From Rhina ancylostomus (Eukaryota): a stretch of DNA of 64,000 nucleotides. The stretch lies in contig JARFYF010000053.1 of NCBI GenBank assembly GCA_030265395.1, positions 24,213,876 through 24,277,875 of the forward strand, written 5' to 3'. The position numbers and the translations under genes were made by a program. Each line of letters opens with the position of its first letter. Position 1 is the stretch's first letter. This document shows positions 4,273 to 60,036 of the stretch, in pieces. Under the pieces are notes generated by a model. It was not told the DNA's origin, ran no database searches, and saw only the letters and a list, made by a program, of their open reading frames with translations.

Positions 4273-5554
4273 CATACTTATTTTACAAATTTGACCAGCT
4301 GTGATATGACTTTATATTTTTCAGACCAGTGCTTCACTCTCTCAGATTCCAAGCCATTACTCTTGTTTTAAGTGGTTGTTCTTTTGGAGTGCATTACAGC
4401 TGGCAAACACTGATCTTAATCAGTAACCTCCAGTACATGTTTTATGCCGTGCTCCTAATGAGTGATTTACCATAATCACTAGCTGGCAAGTAGAGACAAA
4501 AGTCTGTGATTATGCAATAAATTAATCTCAGGAAGAAAATACAATTTTATATGCATGATAAAGCAATGGGTAACTATGGTAATTGAAAAATAGAACTGCA
4601 AATGCTGGAAACCTGAAATTAAAAAAAAACAAATATGTTGGAAATACTCAGCAGGTCAGGCAACATCAATGTAAAGAAATACCATTTTAGATTGAAGACC
4701 CTTCCTCTGGCTTCAATTTTAGCCATGAACAATGTGTACTCCTGTTGGGAAGTTGTTAAATTCTCATTTGGGTCAACAGATTTCTAGATATTAAAAGATA
4801 CAAGGGATGGGAGAATAGTTCAGGGAAATGGTGCTGAAGTAGAATGTTGCCAGGATTTTGTTAAATAGCAGAGACTGGAGAGGCTGAACGTCCTCAATCT
4901 GCTCCTGCCTCTTGTATCCTTTTCACTGTTCAGTAAATACACAATTTTGTAAAAGTTTTGGTAAAGAAATTTGAATTTAAGAAAACATCGGTAGGTATTG
5001 TGCTGGTAATGTAGGTTCCACCGCTTTTAACTGATTTAACTATGTAGAAAAGTAAAGCTTCCATGCAGATCACATAAGTTAAAACAGGTTGGTGTTTTGT
5101 GTTTGGTTGCTGCCATCTAGTGGATTTTGTCCTTATTCAGTTCATATTATAAATTGAACCAATATTACTGAGCTGAATTTGACGAAGTGGGTAAATGTTT
5201 TATCTGGTTTCTGTTACTAGGACACATCCTCAAATAGAAAAGGACAGTATTAAACTAAGTTAAGTGTACAAGGTGTCAGGGGCATTGACCTTCAGAAATT
5301 ACAGAAAGTAATTGCAATTTGCAGTTTTATTACATCAAAAGATTCCTGTACAGGATAATAAGGTCTATTAACAATTTGTCTCTGAATACATACCTCCAAA
5401 CAACTGCCTTCACTTTAGGTCTCCACTATTGTACTGAAATAGTAGTCAGCACATGGTTAAAGAGCTTTTGTTGTATAAATGGCTTGCTATATTAATCTGA
5501 TGCAATCCACTTTAAGATTTCAAGATTAGATACATGATTAGTTAGATTAGCTGA

Positions 5555-7596: not shown

Positions 7597-7898
7597 GAAT
7601 TTAATATTAAGTATGATACAGAAAGAGAAATAGAAAGAGAAATAAAATGTGAATTTGAAGTGACGAATGATAACTGTCACAGCCATAATGTGCAGGTCTA
7701 TTGTATATCATGTAGCAGGTACATGTAGCATTAATCTCCCGTCTAATTTTGGTTAGCAGATTAATGCTACATATACCTGCTACATAATATATGATAGACC
7801 TGCACATTATGGCTGTGACAGTTATCATTCATCACTTCGAAATCACATTTTATTTCTCTTTCTATTTCTCTCTCTGTATCTTATTTAACATTAAATTC
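7597..7898. repeat. Long inverted repeat: 141-bp arms (7597-7737 and 7758-7898), 20-nt spacer
   Basis: Arm-to-arm comparison by eye gives about 11 mismatches and no indels. Confidence 0.95.
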
Positions 7899-10101: not shown

Positions 10102-51214
<41,113 letters not shown>

Positions 51215-52364: not shown

Positions 52365-54270
52365 CCGAAGCAGGAATAGACCATTCAGCCTGTTCTGCAT
52401 GTTTTCCATTTGATAAGATTACAGCTGATTTCTTATTTCAGTGCCATTTTCCTGTGCTTACCCCATATCCCTTGATTCCATTCATTTCCAAAACTCCATC
52501 CAACTCAATATTGAATATACTCAACAACAGGCTTCATAGCTGTTACAGGTGGAAAATCCCAAAGATTCATGATTTGTTGAGTGATTTTTTTTTTCACATC
52601 TGCCAAATATTGCTGACTTTGAGAATGTGACACCTGGTTCTAGATAACTTAGCCAGGGGAAACAACATCTCTGCATCCATCCCATTGAGCCATGTAAGAA
52701 CTTCATTTGTTTCAGTGAGATTGTCTCTCATTCGTCTAAACCCTGGAGAGTATAGACCCAGTCTGTTTAACCTTACAGGACAATCCTGCCCACCATTCTA
52801 AGAATCAATCTGCTTATCCTTCAGTATGCTCCCTCTGCTGCAACTGTATAATTCTATGAGTAGGGAGAACAGACCTGCACACAATATTGCAGGTACTCTA
52901 TCTAATTGCAGTCGGACATATTGGAAGAGGATTTGAGCACAAGAATAAATAAAGGCCGAATGCCATTTGTGTTTCCAATTGCTTATTTACCTGCATGCTA
53001 ATTTTCAGTGATTTGTGTACAAGGACGCCAACATCTCCCTTTGCAGTAACACTTTTCAATCCCTCACCATTGAAAAATCAAATTTCTATTTTTTCCATCA
53101 AAGTAAATAACATTTTCTCACATGATATTCCAGCTTTCATGTCCTCAAGCATTCACAGCCCATCTCTAACCCTTTGAAGCCTCTCTGGATCCTCCTCACA
53201 TCCCATGTTGCCACCCAAATTTGTATCATCAGTAAACTTGGAGATACTTTGCAAAAGGCAAAGACAACCTGCAGCTGCTGGAAGTCTGAAATTAAAACAG
53301 AAAGAGCCAGAGATACTCAGCAGGTCTGTAGACACAGAAGCAAGAGTTAATGTTTCAAGTTAACAACCTTTCATCAGAACCCTTTTGTTCCCTAACCTAC
53401 TGAGTATATATACCATTTTCTCTTTCTACTTCTGATATATTACACATGGTCCTCTTGAGGACTGGACTTAACTGAGTTGTTTGATGAAGTGATCAAGAAG
53501 GTCGATAAGGGTAAGGTGGTAGATGTAGTCTACAGTTAAGGCCTTTAATAGGGTTCCACTTCATTTAAATAAATGTTTGCTTTATGATTTTACCTTCCAA
53601 AGTGGATAAACTCACATCTTGCCACATTATATTCCACATGTCAACTTCTTGCCTGTTCACTTAACATGTCTATATTTATTTGCAAGCTCTTTGCATCACA
53701 ACTTGCTAACTCACCTATTTATGTTGGAATGTTGGGTTAAATTTCTGGTTTTCCAACCCCTCTGAACGTCTCCAGAATCTAATTAATTTTGGCAGAGTAC
53801 AACCAATGCATTTACTATCCCTGCAGCTAATGAAGACCCTAGCGTGCAGCCCACCAGAGCCAAGGGATCTCAGACAATAGTAGTTTGGCCTGTACTTCTC
53901 TACCGTTAGAGGTTGCTTTAAATTTCTATTCCCTATTAATCTCCTTGATTATCTATTACTTGGATGTTTATAATGAAGAACAAAACAAAATAATTACTTA
54001 GAATCTCTGCCATTTCTCCATTCACTATTATTAATTCCCAGTCTCATCCTCTAAGAAATTAACTTTAGTTAATCTCGTCCTTTTTACCTACTCTGGAAGC
54101 GCTTCCTGCTTGTTTTTATATTGTTAGTTTAGTCTCACACACTTGTTTTCCCAGCTATATTGGTTTCTTTCAGTCCTCCTTTGCAGATTACTAAAATCGT
54201 CCCACTCCTCTGGCCTACCCCTGCTCTTCACAGAATTTTGCCTTTTCTTTCCATGTAACACCATTCTCGC
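52365..54270 (-). mobile_element. Degenerate CR1-type LINE(s) with a nested Penelope hairpin (53252-53435)
   Basis: ORF track SISKFTDDTNLGGNMGCEEDPERLQR at 53153..53335. Confidence 0.75.
53342..53384 (-). ncRNA. Minimal type I hammerhead ribozyme motif with an intact CUGAUGA/GAAA core
   Basis: AAGGGUU-CUGAUGA-AAGGUUGUUAACUU-GAAAC-AUU-AACUCUU: 7-bp stem I, stem II, NUH triplet. Confidence 0.62.
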
Positions 54271-54439: not shown

Positions 54440-54955
54440 ACAATTCAGGTTTGTGATTGGTTCGTGTAAAACTGGGTGTCCTCGCATGATTGGCAGAGGT
54501 AGCTGTCAAACAGTGTCTTGCCTCTGACTGGGCGCTCCCCGTGGTTCCGCCTCCTACCGACTTGGAATCGGCTGTCAATCAGGTTAATTTCCAATCCACG
54601 GGCGAAATAGTTGGAAAAGTTTTAGAGAAGTTTGTAACAATGAGAAGTCGGAAGGGGAAAAGCGGCCAGCGGGGCGAAGATAACTCTGTCCGGGCTGATG
54701 GTAAGGATGTGTCCGACTCTGCCCCCGCCTCGGCCGGACTGGCCATTCTGTGGGCTCTCCTGCTGTTCTTGGTGGTCGCTTGTGGGGTTGGCGGCTGGTA
54801 CATTCAGCAGCAGCTCGGCACCATCGGCAGCCTGGATCAGACCATTCAAATCCTGCAGAAGAAGCTCTCTCAGCTCGAAACGATCCATTCTCAAGTGAAT
54901 GAGCTGAACGAGAAGGTACGTCCCGACCTGGGGCCTCGGGGGGGGGGGGGGGGGG
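54440..54955 (+). promoter_or_regulatory. CpG-rich promoter and first-exon region with CCAAT boxes and a GC-box-like motif
   Basis: Local CpG enrichment in an otherwise CpG-depleted window; ATTGG at 54456 and 54489, CCAAT at 54591, CCGCCT at 54547. Confidence 0.7.
54640..54915 (+). CDS. IKBIP/CKAP4-like type II membrane coiled-coil protein, exon 1 (basic N-tail, transmembrane helix, start of coiled coil)
   Basis: acaATGa start; MRSRKGK...LAILWALLLFLVVACGVGGWYIQQQ...VNELNEK|gtacgt. TM-W-xx-QQ followed by an exon ending in EK resembles IKBIP exon 1 as recalled. Confidence 0.8.
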
Positions 54956-55168
54956 NNNNNNNNNNNNNNNNNNNNNNNNNNNNNNNNNNNNNNNNNNNNN
55001 NNNNNNNNNNNNNNNNNNNNNNNNNNNNNNNNNNNNNNNNNNNNNNNNNNNNNNNNNNGATTTCTAGACAAACCTGCCCAATATCTGACCAATAAACTGA
55101 CTTCAGATATGATGTGAAAGTCACTGCCATTGACTTCAAAGCAGGAGTTGATTTACTATAGGATTAAT

Positions 55169-55318
55169 AAACGTTGGAAACACTCAGCAAGTCAGGCAGT
55201 ATCTACAGAAATTGAAACAGCGTTAACGTTTCAGGTGGGAAAACTTTCGACCTGAAACATTAACTGTTTCTCTTTCCACAGATGCCGCCTGACTTGCTGA
55301 ATGTTTCCAGCATAGTTT
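55169..55318. mobile_element. Penelope-derived fold-back element with the ribozyme core deleted at the apex
   Basis: gaaacagcgttaacgtttcaggt-[13 nt]-acctgaaacattaactgtttc inside longer inverted arms. Confidence 0.75.
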
Positions 55319-55531
55319 GTTTTTATCTCCGATTTTGAGCATAGAATCATTAAATACCGAAACAGCACTTCGAGGTCAAAGCTATTTTAGTCTCCTCGTA
55401 TTCCCATTAATTTCTTCTCCATCCACTCCTTGATTCTACCCCGCACCGACTGCAGTTTTTTTTATTGACTGAGCATGGCATTGGGGAAAATCGAACTTAA
55501 TGGAAATCAAAGGGAAAGTTTAGATCAAGTC

Positions 55532-55622
55532 AAAAAACAAACTGCTGGAGGAAGTCAGTGGGCCAGGCAGCATCTGTGGAGTGAAATGGACAGTCGGCGT
55601 TTCAGGTTGAGACCCTTCATCC
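55532..55622 (-). mobile_element. Penelope terminal fragment with a truncated hammerhead motif
   Basis: Reverse complement reads GAUGA-AGGGUCUCAACCU-GAAAC-GCC-GACUG...acagatgctgcctggccc. Confidence 0.7.
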
Positions 55623-58600
55623 GCGTTTCCATTAGATCAAGTCAATCATAGCATGAAGGATTTGTTTGCTTCAGACTTATCTCCAAGCTGCAGGAGTTCC
55701 TTAATGCAGTGTCCTAGGTCCAGTCACGTGAAGTTGCTTTGTCATTGACCTTCCCTCTGTATGTAAGAAGGTGGGAATTTATGATGATACCATAGGGTTC
55801 AATTTTGACCCTCAGTGTTATGAAGCAGACTTGCCCTCGTACAGGAAGACACGGATGTTATTCAGACCTACAGACTCTCGCAATGGTTATAGTTCAGAAG
55901 AATACCATTCAGCTCATCAGGTCTGTACTTGCACTACATGTGTTGAACATAAAATGTTTCCTTGTGTCATTTTGATCAACATAATCTATGACCCCCTAGT
56001 ACTTGATCTCTCAGCCAATGGGGACAGTGTTTCTCTATCTATTCCTCATGATTTTTAAATACATTCATCAGTTCTCCTTGTAATTTATTCTGTTTCAAGG
56101 AGATCAGCCCCCATTTCTCCAATCCATCCACATAGCCAAGGTCCAACATCCTCTGGAATCTTGTTGGTAAATCCCTTCTAGGCCTTCCTCAAAGCACACT
56201 TAAATTGATAATTGATTTATTATTGTCACATGTACTGAGATACAGTGAAAAACATTGTCTTGCATGCCATCCATACAGATCATTTCAAAACATAAGTATG
56301 TCGAGGTAGTACAAAGGGAAAAATGATAATGATGCAGAATATAGTGTTACAGTTACATAGAAAGTGCGGTGTAGGTAGACGATAAGGTGCAAGGGCCATG
56401 ATGATGTAGATGTGAGATCAACAGTTCATCTTTATCACATAAGAGGTCCATTCAAGAGTCTTATACCAATGGGCCTTTTAACCAATCCAGGCTGGCTTTT
56501 CTCTATCCACCCATACTTGTCAAAATTACTGCTGATCCTATCCTTGCTTATTGCTTGTACTTCTCAGGTTTATCCCTGCGTGATTCATTTGAAAAGAGTC
56601 ATTTTGAAAAGATTCATTTGAAAAGAGTTAAAAGATTCATTTGAAAACCTGGAATTTTCCAGTCTGTGGACACCCTCCCTATAGATGTTTGGAAGATTGT
56701 GGAAGAGTTACTTCTCTTACTTTTCTCAGCAATCTGGACCAGATGATTTAACCAATTAAATGTGGCTAGCCTTTCTAGTACCACCACCCTATTAAATTTT
56801 TACCCCACCAGAATCTCAATTGCATCATCTTTGCTGAGACTTCATTGGCATTTTCATTGGTAAAGGCTGATGTAAATTACTTATTTAGTACCTAAGACAT
56901 GCACTCAGCTTTCACAAGTAAATTTTCTTCTTGGTCTCTCACTGGCCATTCCTCTCCTTTTACAACCCTTTTCCTGTACACATGCCTGTAGTTTGCTGCT
57001 TAACGGTACTATACACAAGAGAGAGGGAGAAGACAAAGGAAACTGACAACTAAGGAAGATTCGGACAACATCCTTGTGTAGCAGATGTGTCTCTGGGTCA
57101 TATCTTTCTACTTTAAAGAGTAATATATGCTATCTTGTTTTGGAGTTTTAAAAGAAAAATAACTGAAGAAAACGTTTACAGAAATAAAATGGACATTCAC
57201 AATTACTGCTATAAATGGAAGTTGTTCATCAGTCATTATAGAGTTTGATGTTGTCTTCTGGATCTCTAATCATTTGGATGTTGTTATTTAATTTGGAGAA
57301 CAATGCTAGTAATCTGTATTTCAGAAGTGTCCTTAAGCTCTGGAGTATTGCTTACATGTGTTTCATCTGTTTAAATAAGACAATGCTGAATACAGTGTCT
57401 TAGTGAACTTCCTACTTCCACATTAGACTCTAGCACCTGTAACTCTTGTTAGTGCAGCAGCACTCCAAATATTCCTTCCAATAAGCTCCACCTGGATGTA
57501 TCATTTGAAGTAGTCTTGTAGTGATACTGTGCATGATACTTCATACTGGTAAGAGCATATGCATTTTCCTCAATTGAATATTGAGGTAAAGGTAATGGTG
57601 TCTTGCACTTTCATCCTTTGAGTCTCTATGCAGTTCATCTACACTACATCTTCATTTGCCAGTCTTAACACAGCTAGAAACTTTTGATCCTACTCCTTGT
57701 CTTTCTGATATTGTTTCAGAGTTTTTCTCACATTTTCAATTTTGTCATTGGACTGCGGTGAGTAAAGTGATTGTGTCACATGCTTAAATTCCATAAATAT
57801 GCATGTTAATATTTTCACAAACACCACAGATTTTTCAGATGTAAACATCAGAATGTTTGACGACACAAATCTGGCATGAATCTATCGTAAGTTTTGAAAT
57901 GTATACAGAAAATACAAAACTCAGCATGTCAGGCAGCATCTGTGTGGAGAAAAGCAGTAAACATTTCAAATCGATGGCTTTTCTTCAGAATGGGACCAAC
58001 ATATTCCAAGTTGCAGAGGATGTGGATGACTGCAGAGGACAAAGGGAAATGTAAGAGCGTGAAGACCCAGAAAGACTGAAATGTAAATGATAGTACAGAT
58101 GGCTGAGAGAGGGTGGTGAAGTTGTCTTAGGATAGTGCATAACAAATGAAATAAAGCTGGTTATGGTATAAAGTTACTGAAATAATCACATGCAGGAAGC
58201 AGTTTAAGGTCACACAACTGGAAAGATCAATTTTAACCTCTGACTAAAGCCCAACAACTGTGTCATGATGCAATACTTTATTTTTACTTGGTGAATCAAA
58301 GATAAGTCAAATAAATATGACAATATTGTAATGTATATTTTAAGGTCTGCTAATATTTTGGGCCAATAGATTTAACCCTTTGAGCTATCAATGTTCATCA
58401 CTTACCTAATATAGGGATTCCTCAATTTATGAACAATGTACAAATTTTTGCCATAGTGCCATTGACTTTTTTGACTCTCTGTCTTCAACTTATTCAATTT
58501 TTCATTATAGTGAATAGTGAACCACTCTCCGCTACTGCGCCCAAAAAACCATAATGCATTTACGTAGCCAAATTATGTTCAGAAAGTTGGTTTGATGAAC

Positions 58601-59205
58601 AAGTCCCTTTTGTAAATTAAGAATGAGTTTATGGTTAATGGAAAAAGCACCTGACCTTTAAACATTAAACCCCTTCACTATGTTTCATCCCAATAAAATC
58701 ACTTGCCAATGACTTGCATTTAGGGTGTGCATGCCCTTAATCTCTCACGAGAAGATGGAGATCCTTTTTGCTGTTAATAGAATCCCACTATTCTGTTGTT
58801 CCCAGATGCATGGATAGCTTGGGACCATTGCTATAATGAAGAAGTGAAATGGAAAACATACTGTTCAGCCACAAAATTATGTTTTGCTTTTATTTCTCTG
58901 CTAGTTCGCTGCAGGTTTCTTTGAAGCTGATTTGAATTTTAATCATTTGGTGGTTGACAATGAATGAGGTTAAGGAAAACTGATATAGACTAATTTATAA
59001 ATATTTCACTATATTGATTATTTTTGAGAAATACATTGAGAATCATTGAGAAATTACAAAGTAAATGAAGCAAAAATATGTACAAAGTGGAAAAATATTC
59101 TACTTTTTATCAGTCAGTGCCTCCTTTATGGAGAACAAACAAGCTTAGTAAACTCATTTGTATTATTTCCCTCCTCTGAAAAAGATATTTCTCCTTTTAT
59201 TTCAG

Positions 59206-59831
59206 TTGTTGATCACAGAAGCTCACGAACAAAGGTTGCAGGATCTCGAGGTTACGTGGGCTGATTCTAAAAGGAAAATGGAAATGACAATGGAGGCCAT
59301 GGCACAGATCGAGTCAGCTAACCTAAATAGTAAGGTGGCTGTGCTTCAGTCAGAGATGGGTAAAAGCCTGAGTGAGCTCAGGAAGGACTTGCTCACAAAG
59401 AGCGACCTGGAGCACCTGGAGGATATGGTTGAAGTTCTTCGAGAAGTTGAGTTTGCTCGGGCAGAGCAGGAAGTTGCAAGTATGAAGGCTGCAACCTCCA
59501 AACTTGAAGAAAGTGTATATTCACTTTCTGCTTCATTTCCAGCTTTAACAGGTCGAGTTACAAGCCTAGAAGCAGAAAGGCAGGACCTTCAGTCTCTTCA
59601 GCAAAGTGCTGAGGACATCAACACAGTCAAAGAGTTAATGGACCATAGTCTGCCCTCCCTCTCCAATGGTGTGATTGCATTGTCAAAACAAGTAAACCAG
59701 ACTACCCAGGTGACTGATGTTATTCAGTCACAGTTAGCTCAGCATAGCAAAGAATTATCAGCCCTGAAAGACTTTGCATCTGATCAGCAAGTTGAGCACC
59801 TGTCCAGAAAAGAGGAACTGGAAAACATCAG
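59206..59831 (+). CDS. IKBIP/CKAP4-like protein, exon 2 (long coiled coil)
   Basis: ORF 59158..59892 with heptad character; acceptor ttttatttcag, donor ag|gtttat; phase 0-2. Confidence 0.85.
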
Positions 59832-60036
59832 GTTTATAAATGGTTTTTGCCGAGACAATTGGAAATTTGTGACTGAATACACTCAAAAGTGAAATATAAT
59901 GTTGAGAAGGAATATAGCACCGATGCTTAGTACTTTTGATGTATTTGATATTTTTGGATGCATTTGAGATCTTTGCGTTCTGCATAAAATGAGTACTGCT
60001 CAGGTAATGTCTTATTCCTTGCTGTCTCCATTCCAG

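Follow-up and report, generated by a model that had tools for sequence, protein, structure and literature searches.

A very probably fossil minimal hammerhead motif of Penelope-like origin in the genome of the ray Rhina ancylostomus

Introduction

Minimal hammerhead ribozymes (min-HHRs) have been described in the ends of Penelope-like elements (PLEs) and as dispersed single copies in fishes, the coelacanth, Xenopus and reptiles, and the genomes of coelacanth and Xenopus are each reported to hold thousands of single, variable motifs (Cervera and de la Pena 2014, PMC4209133). Their traits are a bulged base, a G10.1-C11.1 pair, a short helix I and a palindromic 15.2-16.2 (PMC4209133). No cleavage has been reported for a single min-HHR and low cleavage for dimers (PMC4209133); the hammerhead of an anole PLE needed the protein of the element for cleavage (PMC11167929), and eight of nine Xenopus dimers did not cleave (10.64898/2026.07.22.740005). 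An inverted truncated terminal repeat (pLTR) and a tail of 30-40 bp have been described for PLEs (PMC8557442, PMC3846280), an architecture traced to two start sites of the reverse transcriptase (RT) (PMC11167929), and a CX2-5CxxC cysteine linker has been ascribed to Neptune and Nematis (PMC8557442). Retrozymes have been reported in one chondrichthyan genome (10.64898/2026.07.22.740005). The accessible text and two supplementary files of PMC4209133 name no shark or ray family, and our search, confined to the literature and the supplements open to searching, returned no paper describing the ray repeat family presented here.

In a stretch of 64,000 nt (the window, i.e. the whole of the DNA that was analysed) we have characterized a decayed hammerhead motif on the minus strand at 53342..53384. 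Like the metazoan PLE min-HHRs (PMC4209133), it has the type I order, intact boxes, a bulge between 9 and 10.1, a short helix I and no loop III, its inferred ancestor has the palindrome, and its relatives are mostly single, highly variable copies; unlike them, this copy has A-U at 10.1-11.1, has lost the palindrome and has a lengthened stem I. The insertions which carry such motifs in the ray resemble those of EN+ PLEs (PMC8557442, PMC3846280, PMC11167929) in the inverted 5'-truncated copy beside a forward copy, microhomology junctions, a tail of ~25-40 nt on one arm, a target duplication in two of seven pairs, and RT relatives with a C-terminal GIY-YIG and a cysteine linker. They differ in their extreme truncation (~200 bp, mostly without an ORF), in their density (24 arms in 64 kb) and in their duplications, which measure 13-14 bp as against 8-10 bp in the rotifer EN+ PLE examples. 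We consider it very probable that the motif is a fossil pLTR hammerhead of a PLE, probably of Neptune type, which has decayed neutrally and most likely does not cleave.

Results

Anatomy of the motif

Re-reading of the minus strand from 53384 to 53342 gave the same letters from which the original prediction had derived a CUGAUGA box, a GAAA box and an NUH triplet. The parts of the motif are listed below, numbered by the usual hammerhead convention, which is also that of PMC4209133.

53342..53384, minus strand: decayed minimal type I hammerhead motif (sequence, fold and descriptor)
53378..53384, minus strand: stem I, 5' side, of which the inner 3 nt agree with the family and the rest most likely comes from the inverted short arm through a microhomology junction
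53371..53377, minus strand: C3-A9 catalytic box, intact (sequence and arm alignment)
53370, minus strand: bulged A (fold prediction)
53357..53369, minus strand: helix II, 5 bp with one G-U and a 3-nt loop; pair 10.1-11.1 is A-U, usually G-C
53353..53356, minus strand: G12-A15.1 (hammerhead numbering)
53352 to 53349, minus strand: C15.2 (53352), A16.2 (53351), ancestrally G, U16.1 (53350) and U17 (53349); palindrome broken
Between 53349 (U17) and 53348, minus strand: putative cleavage site (hammerhead numbering)
53342-53348, minus strand: 3' strand of stem I (hammerhead numbering)

All 11 invariant bases (the CUGANGA and GAAA boxes, U16.1 and H17, here U) are kept. The proposed 7-bp stem I with one G-U pair was recovered in the fold of the 43-mer, with pair probabilities of 0.49-1.0, and so was a foldable stem II, which forms 5 bp (0.57-0.85) if A53370, the base after A9, is bulged; helices I and II are both predicted to be able to form, with a bulged base before 10.1. 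The stability of the 43-mer is ordinary (z -0.94; 37 of 200 shuffles fold as well). Its fold with open boxes is predicted at -5.7 kcal/mol, compared with a minimum of -7.0 kcal/mol, and both catalytic boxes are free in ~6% of the predicted ensemble.

A minimal-hammerhead descriptor matched 53342..53384 and no other site in the window, the control for this descriptor (150 first-order Markov sequences) yielding one match with a stem I of at least 3 bp and none with at least 7 bp. Rfam gave no hammerhead match at E<=5 in the whole window or at E<=10 locally. The motif is real and is not a product of chance.

The repeat family

An iterated profile search (E<=0.01) revealed 24 arms of a dispersed inverted repeat in the window. 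The GAAA box is included in 21 of these, the remaining three (21310-21398 and two short arms, 39518-39633 and 53326-53454) being dropped for lack of the ribozyme part; both boxes are present in 17, after four truncated arms (G12 at 45391, 47615, 55232 and 55254) were set aside. The minimal type I architecture that had been proposed for the motif is supported, and the boxes and the helix register recur in these 17 arms. Summed contig depth reaches ~3,500 at 53293-53369, compared with ~6.5 in unique sequence, in both public DNA-like runs, a measure which shows that there are many similar copies and is not a copy number; one of the runs (X1) is possibly the source of the window itself and so not independent. 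No RNA run was listed among the sequencing runs with matching sequence, an outcome that does not bear on expression. Pattern scans of viral, metagenome and prokaryotic genome collections found no other copies, as expected for a vertebrate repeat, and neither an intact young copy nor a complete element came to light.

Fourteen arms form seven inverted pairs, all of them asymmetric: the short arm extends 35-74 nt beyond the cleavage site, its partner 79-99 nt. Target duplications flank two of the seven (13/13 and 13/14 bases), with scores of 13 and 11 that were reached by 0 and 2, respectively, of 272 control intervals; in the other five pairs, including the one at 53342..53384, flanking-duplication scores did not exceed those of the controls. 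The arm-arm junction is different in every pair, and six of the seven paired elements, ~200-250 bp in length, have no coding sequence. Two members of the family deserve separate mention:

47495..47737: the paired element that has decayed least, flanked by an exact 13-bp target duplication; ACGU is kept in its minus-strand arm, where U4 has changed to A
57951..57995, minus strand: another arm in which 11/11 invariant bases of the core are kept, with most of stems I and II disrupted

The claim that 53342..53384 holds the best-preserved core of the window can thus be kept in part: its 11/11 bases are tied by the arm with G12 at 57967, the stems of which are worse.

Relationship to Penelope-like elements

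One element ties the repeat family to PLEs:

20958..21398: inverted short arm with hammerhead remains, a PLE RT fragment at ~21057-21316 (plus strand) and the end of a tailed arm

The stretch 21057-21316 translates into an RT-like piece with 226 matches at E<=0.001, and six of eight scanned matches contain RVT_1 plus a C-terminal GIY-YIG (E<=0.01). A profile also matches 21125-21316 (E 4.5e-20), a value that is not independent since the profile was built from the matches of the piece itself. A cysteine linker is present in all four full-length relatives inspected (P0027, P0034, P0045 and P0119) and not in the window. The PLE was probably of Neptune type. No match to the RT piece came from a PDB search or, in the right frame, from a word-based search of proteins, and in the ESM Atlas the piece falls into unnamed eukaryotic clusters (DUF8422, on 21% of one of them, is a lead only).

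The link between arm and RT is provided by one element, which belongs to subfamily B (see below), while the motif at 53342..53384 belongs to subfamily A. No RT was found at the latter locus, and neither profile nor tblastn confirmed a GIY-YIG in the window. The proposed origin in a PLE terminal repeat is supported by the asymmetry of the arms in 7/7 pairs, the target duplications in 2/7 and the one RT fragment.

A second, weaker PLE RT fragment without an attached arm lies at 33882-34064 on the minus strand (profile E 1.3e-4, tblastn E 0.003); the idea that it continues into the arm at 32459 found no support. The broken frame at 42077-42160 (plus strand), which precedes two arms on the same strand (42217 and 42527, separated by 310 bp), looks at first sight like a GIY-YIG C-terminus, a reading for which neither profile nor tblastn offered support.

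Ancestral ribozyme and subfamilies

Positions 15.2/16.2 read CA in six, TA in five, TG in four, CG in four and other letters in two of the 21 arms. This spectrum points to a decaying ancestral CpG, as had been proposed for the AACGUU palindrome, whose DNA form AACGTT is indeed present at both 55225-55230 and 47568-47573. The ACGU palindrome together with U16.1 is kept in 2/21 arms. Pair 10.1-11.1 is G-C in six, A-U in five, G-U in five and unpaired in one of the 17 arms.

Three arm columns outside the ribozyme, picked by eye, divide the 21 arms into 12 of subfamily A, eight of subfamily B and one unassigned. The subfamilies differ in U17-A1.1 (9/12 A, 0/8 B; p 0.0014), U2.1 (8/10 A, 1/6 B; p 0.035), U11.1 (11/12 A, 3/8 B; p 0.018) and a spacer longer by one base (9/10 A, 0/6 B; p 0.0009), and A10.1 is partly fixed in A (5/9, compared with 0/5 in B; p 0.086). 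Pair 1.1-2.1 therefore reads A-U in subfamily A and, once CpG decay is taken into account, G-C in subfamily B, a pattern from which we infer a double change between active ancestors. Against this, covariation across the whole alignment does not exceed that of shuffles: 58.0% of the positions are paired, compared with 57.1% (185 of 500), and double changes number 20, compared with 15 (30 of 500). The hammerhead register surpasses all six slid controls (58% paired, compared with 22-41%), and RNAalifold applied to the arms returned no consensus pair.

The inferred ancestors show the min-HHR traits, except for A-U or G-U at 10.1-11.1 in subfamily A; judged from the aligned arms, the motif descends from the minimal hammerhead already known in PLEs.

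Structure and history of the insertion

The insertion and its surroundings are composed as follows:

53253..53377, minus strand: long tailed terminal-repeat arm with the hammerhead and an internal deletion of ~9-10 nt (end approximate)
53378..53430, plus strand: short inverted arm without hammerhead, forming a hairpin with the long arm (end approximate)
52950..53252, minus strand: decayed LINE-RT-like host sequence downstream of the insertion (translations, paralogs at 33109 and 42645; no Pfam match)
53431..53470, minus strand: upstream part of the interrupted LINE-RT-like sequence; possible decayed target duplication, not above control scores

The interrupted sequence is presumably of CR1 type. 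Several observations concern the origin of the long stem I. Its outer three pairs are unpaired in 8/15, 9/17 and 11/17 arms. The 15 nt upstream of C3, when reverse-complemented, match the starts of 10 arms at 6-11 of 15 positions (mean 7.8), whereas they match the native 5' flanks of seven arms at 2-6 (mean 3.4), and 53378-53431 aligns with the long arm of the element itself. Since, moreover, paralogous contigs leave the stretch at 53379/53380, the inverted arm appears to be joined directly to the core. Such an arm, being the reverse complement of the 3' side, would start with the letters of the 5' strand of stem I, so that a junction at this point would lengthen the stem; it would also explain the hairpin of the 131-nt region (z -2.70). 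The outer part of the 7-bp stem I was thus most likely derived from the element's own inverted arm, either when the element inserted or through a subsequent deletion.

In run X2, one contig connects 53240 with 53436. Positions 52992-54054 are covered by a 1,121-nt contig of another organism (organism B), which differs by 34 letters and one gap (~3%) and spans the insertion; this indicates that both insertion and junction predate the split of the species. At 53364, in loop II, another letter is found in 58-59% of the contig depth, as well as in an X2 contig far from its end, and we read it as that of the ortholog. Within the motif, ortholog bases are legible at this position only, the rest being swamped by paralogs, so that for this locus itself the absence of selection is probable.

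The tailed arms at 42499-42765 (plus strand) and 53080-53395 (minus strand) adjoin one and the same site of a LINE-RT-like sequence, and the LINE flanks of the two form a group apart from two other LINE pieces (nine informative columns, compared with one and two). This may reflect either a duplicated composite or a repeated target. The arm at 42527 has lost G12 and helix II and shares A16.2 with the arm at 53356.

Genomic setting

The motif lies between two genes, as had been stated, in so far as coding exons are concerned: on the upstream side no Ig-coding stretch was found beyond 50485, and the ATG of the downstream gene is at 54640, 1,256 bp from the motif. Both genes are on the plus strand, to which the hammerhead motif is antisense. 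In the upstream gene, which we take to be IGFN1-like, exons for Ig, THB and fn3 domains extend from 12300 to ~50485. The gene also has a glycine-rich exon and includes, at 28506-30314 (plus strand), a 602-codon frame with 33-nt glycine-rich repeats. The protein encoded by the downstream gene (54640-54900 and 59200-59890, plus strand) is uncharacterised and combines a single hydrophobic segment with a long helical part; its closest named relatives are ray proteins (78-79% identity), followed by those of other cartilaginous fishes (65-69%). In a search limited to longer proteins, its relatives came from cartilaginous fishes only and bore inconsistent names.

Among 285 stop-to-stop frames of the window (283 of the 297 of at least 55 aa, plus two further ones; the other 14 belong to the glycine-rich exon and to the large exon of the downstream gene), Pfam detected only Ig, THB and fn3 domains, with no RT or GIY-YIG. 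The observed/expected ratio of CpG across the window is 0.18. A long inverted repeat of another family occupies 7597-7898 (arms of 141 nt, 92% complementary, 20 nt apart).

Neutral decay and probable inactivity

The 11 invariant core positions match in 172 of 207 cells (83%), which does not differ from the non-ribozyme part of the arm, whether a block of 23 columns (376/458, 82%; p 0.83) or of 34 columns (544/683, 80%; p 0.32) is compared, even though placing the 5' box at its best offset favours core conservation. Intact cores (11/11) were observed in 2/17 arms (53356 and 57967), with 1.8-2.1 expected. G12, which serves as the general base (PMC6155905), is kept in 13/21 arms. As intact cores are as frequent as chance predicts, the good state of the core at 53342..53384 needs no selection; the copies of the family decay neutrally, and the idea of special preservation finds no support, core conservation being that of the background.

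Nor is it supported that the motif is near-intact in a functional sense: the palindrome of helix III is lost, and the base that changed is one of two that must pair in the dimer. C15.2 and A16.2 are adjacent in this copy, so no monomer helix III is possible, and a homodimer through ACAU would contain two C-A mismatches. The predicted energy of the hexamer self-duplex is +2.8 kcal/mol for the ACAU copy, compared with -3.5 kcal/mol for the two arms that keep the palindrome. The minus strand of the window has no complete hammerhead in tandem with 53342..53384, the nearest same-strand arm with a 3' box (55232) being ~1.9 kb away and devoid of a 5' box. Judged from these features and from the behaviour of described min-HHRs, the copy is inactive with high probability and most likely does not cleave.

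Discussion

The anatomy of the locus, the family alignment and the statistics of decay lead us to regard the motif as a PLE fossil, with the following probable history. A PLE would have left very many short insertions in the ray genome. By analogy with published PLEs, two tandem hammerheads of the active ancestor may have swapped strands, the 4-nt palindrome ACGU forming helix III, and its RNA may have been cut after GUU or GUC, perhaps with the help of the element's protein. The insertion, as its anatomy shows, consists of a 5'-truncated tailed arm and an inverted short arm which landed in an older LINE fragment; the inverted arm was probably joined to the core at a microhomology in stem I, the longer stem being a by-product. 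Helix III would then have been lost through a CpG transition at 16.2, and the 11 remaining bases of the core, according to the statistics, survived by chance.

It could be argued instead that the host has retained a functional ribozyme, carried on antisense RNA that starts at the downstream gene's promoter and runs upstream; this ribozyme would cut itself within the long hairpin or act as the enzyme strand on family transcripts with GU at 16.2/16.1. The distance of 1,256 bp between the motif and an ATG downstream of it, on the other strand, would suit such a role, and all 11 invariant bases are in place, but intact cores occur at chance frequency. Both helices can form, but the boxes are free together in only ~6% of the ensemble, no monomer helix III exists and the homodimer has two C-A mismatches. 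The short arm has no antisense hammerhead, which leaves the core unpaired by its complement; the intramolecular stem I, however, would compete with a partner in trans. The insertion is present in two species, yet its loop II base 53364 differs from that of the ortholog and of most aligned paralogs. We consider this explanation very improbable. Slightly less probable still is a more specific form of it, in which a microhomology junction at stem I removed the antisense hammerhead and enclosed one intact core in a long hairpin, 1.25 kb upstream of a host gene; retained by the host, this domesticated PLE min-HHR would act from upstream-antisense RNA, in trans or with the help of a protein, and cut the abundant transcripts of its own repeat family. 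If true, this would be a vertebrate PLE hammerhead that works without its own helix III palindrome.

We give equally little credence to a non-autonomous MITE-like or retrozyme-like family, which would have moved as a unit with ends borrowed from a PLE. The lack of coding sequence in 6/7 paired elements of ~200-250 bp agrees with such a family, and pLTR derivatives of this kind have been described (10.64898/2026.07.22.740005), but one element holds RT sequence, and junctions that differ in every pair are to be expected of independent truncations rather than of one master copy. With non-LTR retrozymes (10.64898/2026.07.22.740005; PMC7229834, in their accessible parts) the ray elements share their non-coding nature, their relation to pLTRs and the type I hammerhead; unlike retrozymes, which are head-to-tail tandems with two complete hammerheads, they are inverted pairs with one. 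This alternative, if true, would change the label of the family and not the verdict on the ribozyme. Finally, a chance resemblance to a hammerhead, with which the missing Rfam match and the ordinary folding energy would agree, is refuted by the family alignment (boxes and register recurring in 17 arms, 58% paired as against 22-41% in six slid controls) and by the single descriptor match in 150 controls, and we assign it practically no weight.

As a PLE fossil, the single motif matters little as it stands, given the thousands reported per genome (PMC4209133). The by-products of the analysis are a dense palindromic ray repeat, tied to PLEs and shown to bear hammerheads, a simple test by which an intact-looking core is expected by chance at such copy numbers, and a lead concerning the orientation of the arms. 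All nine tailed arms located in introns (12470-50273 and 54900-59200) are on the plus strand and so share the direction of their host gene (binomial p 0.004 for a pattern noticed post hoc; p 0.065 for all 11 tailed arms), and the two outside the span of known exons (G12 at 4688 and 53356) are on the minus strand. Our literature search on the orientation of intronic tailed arms found no paper. Beyond the cleavage site the arms of the family, e.g. 55254-55345 and 39612-39710 (both plus strand), carry a pair of pyrimidine tracts, each with a terminal YAG. We take these tracts to be splice-acceptor-like, and in subfamily A a presumably branch-point-like stretch overlaps the cleavage site.
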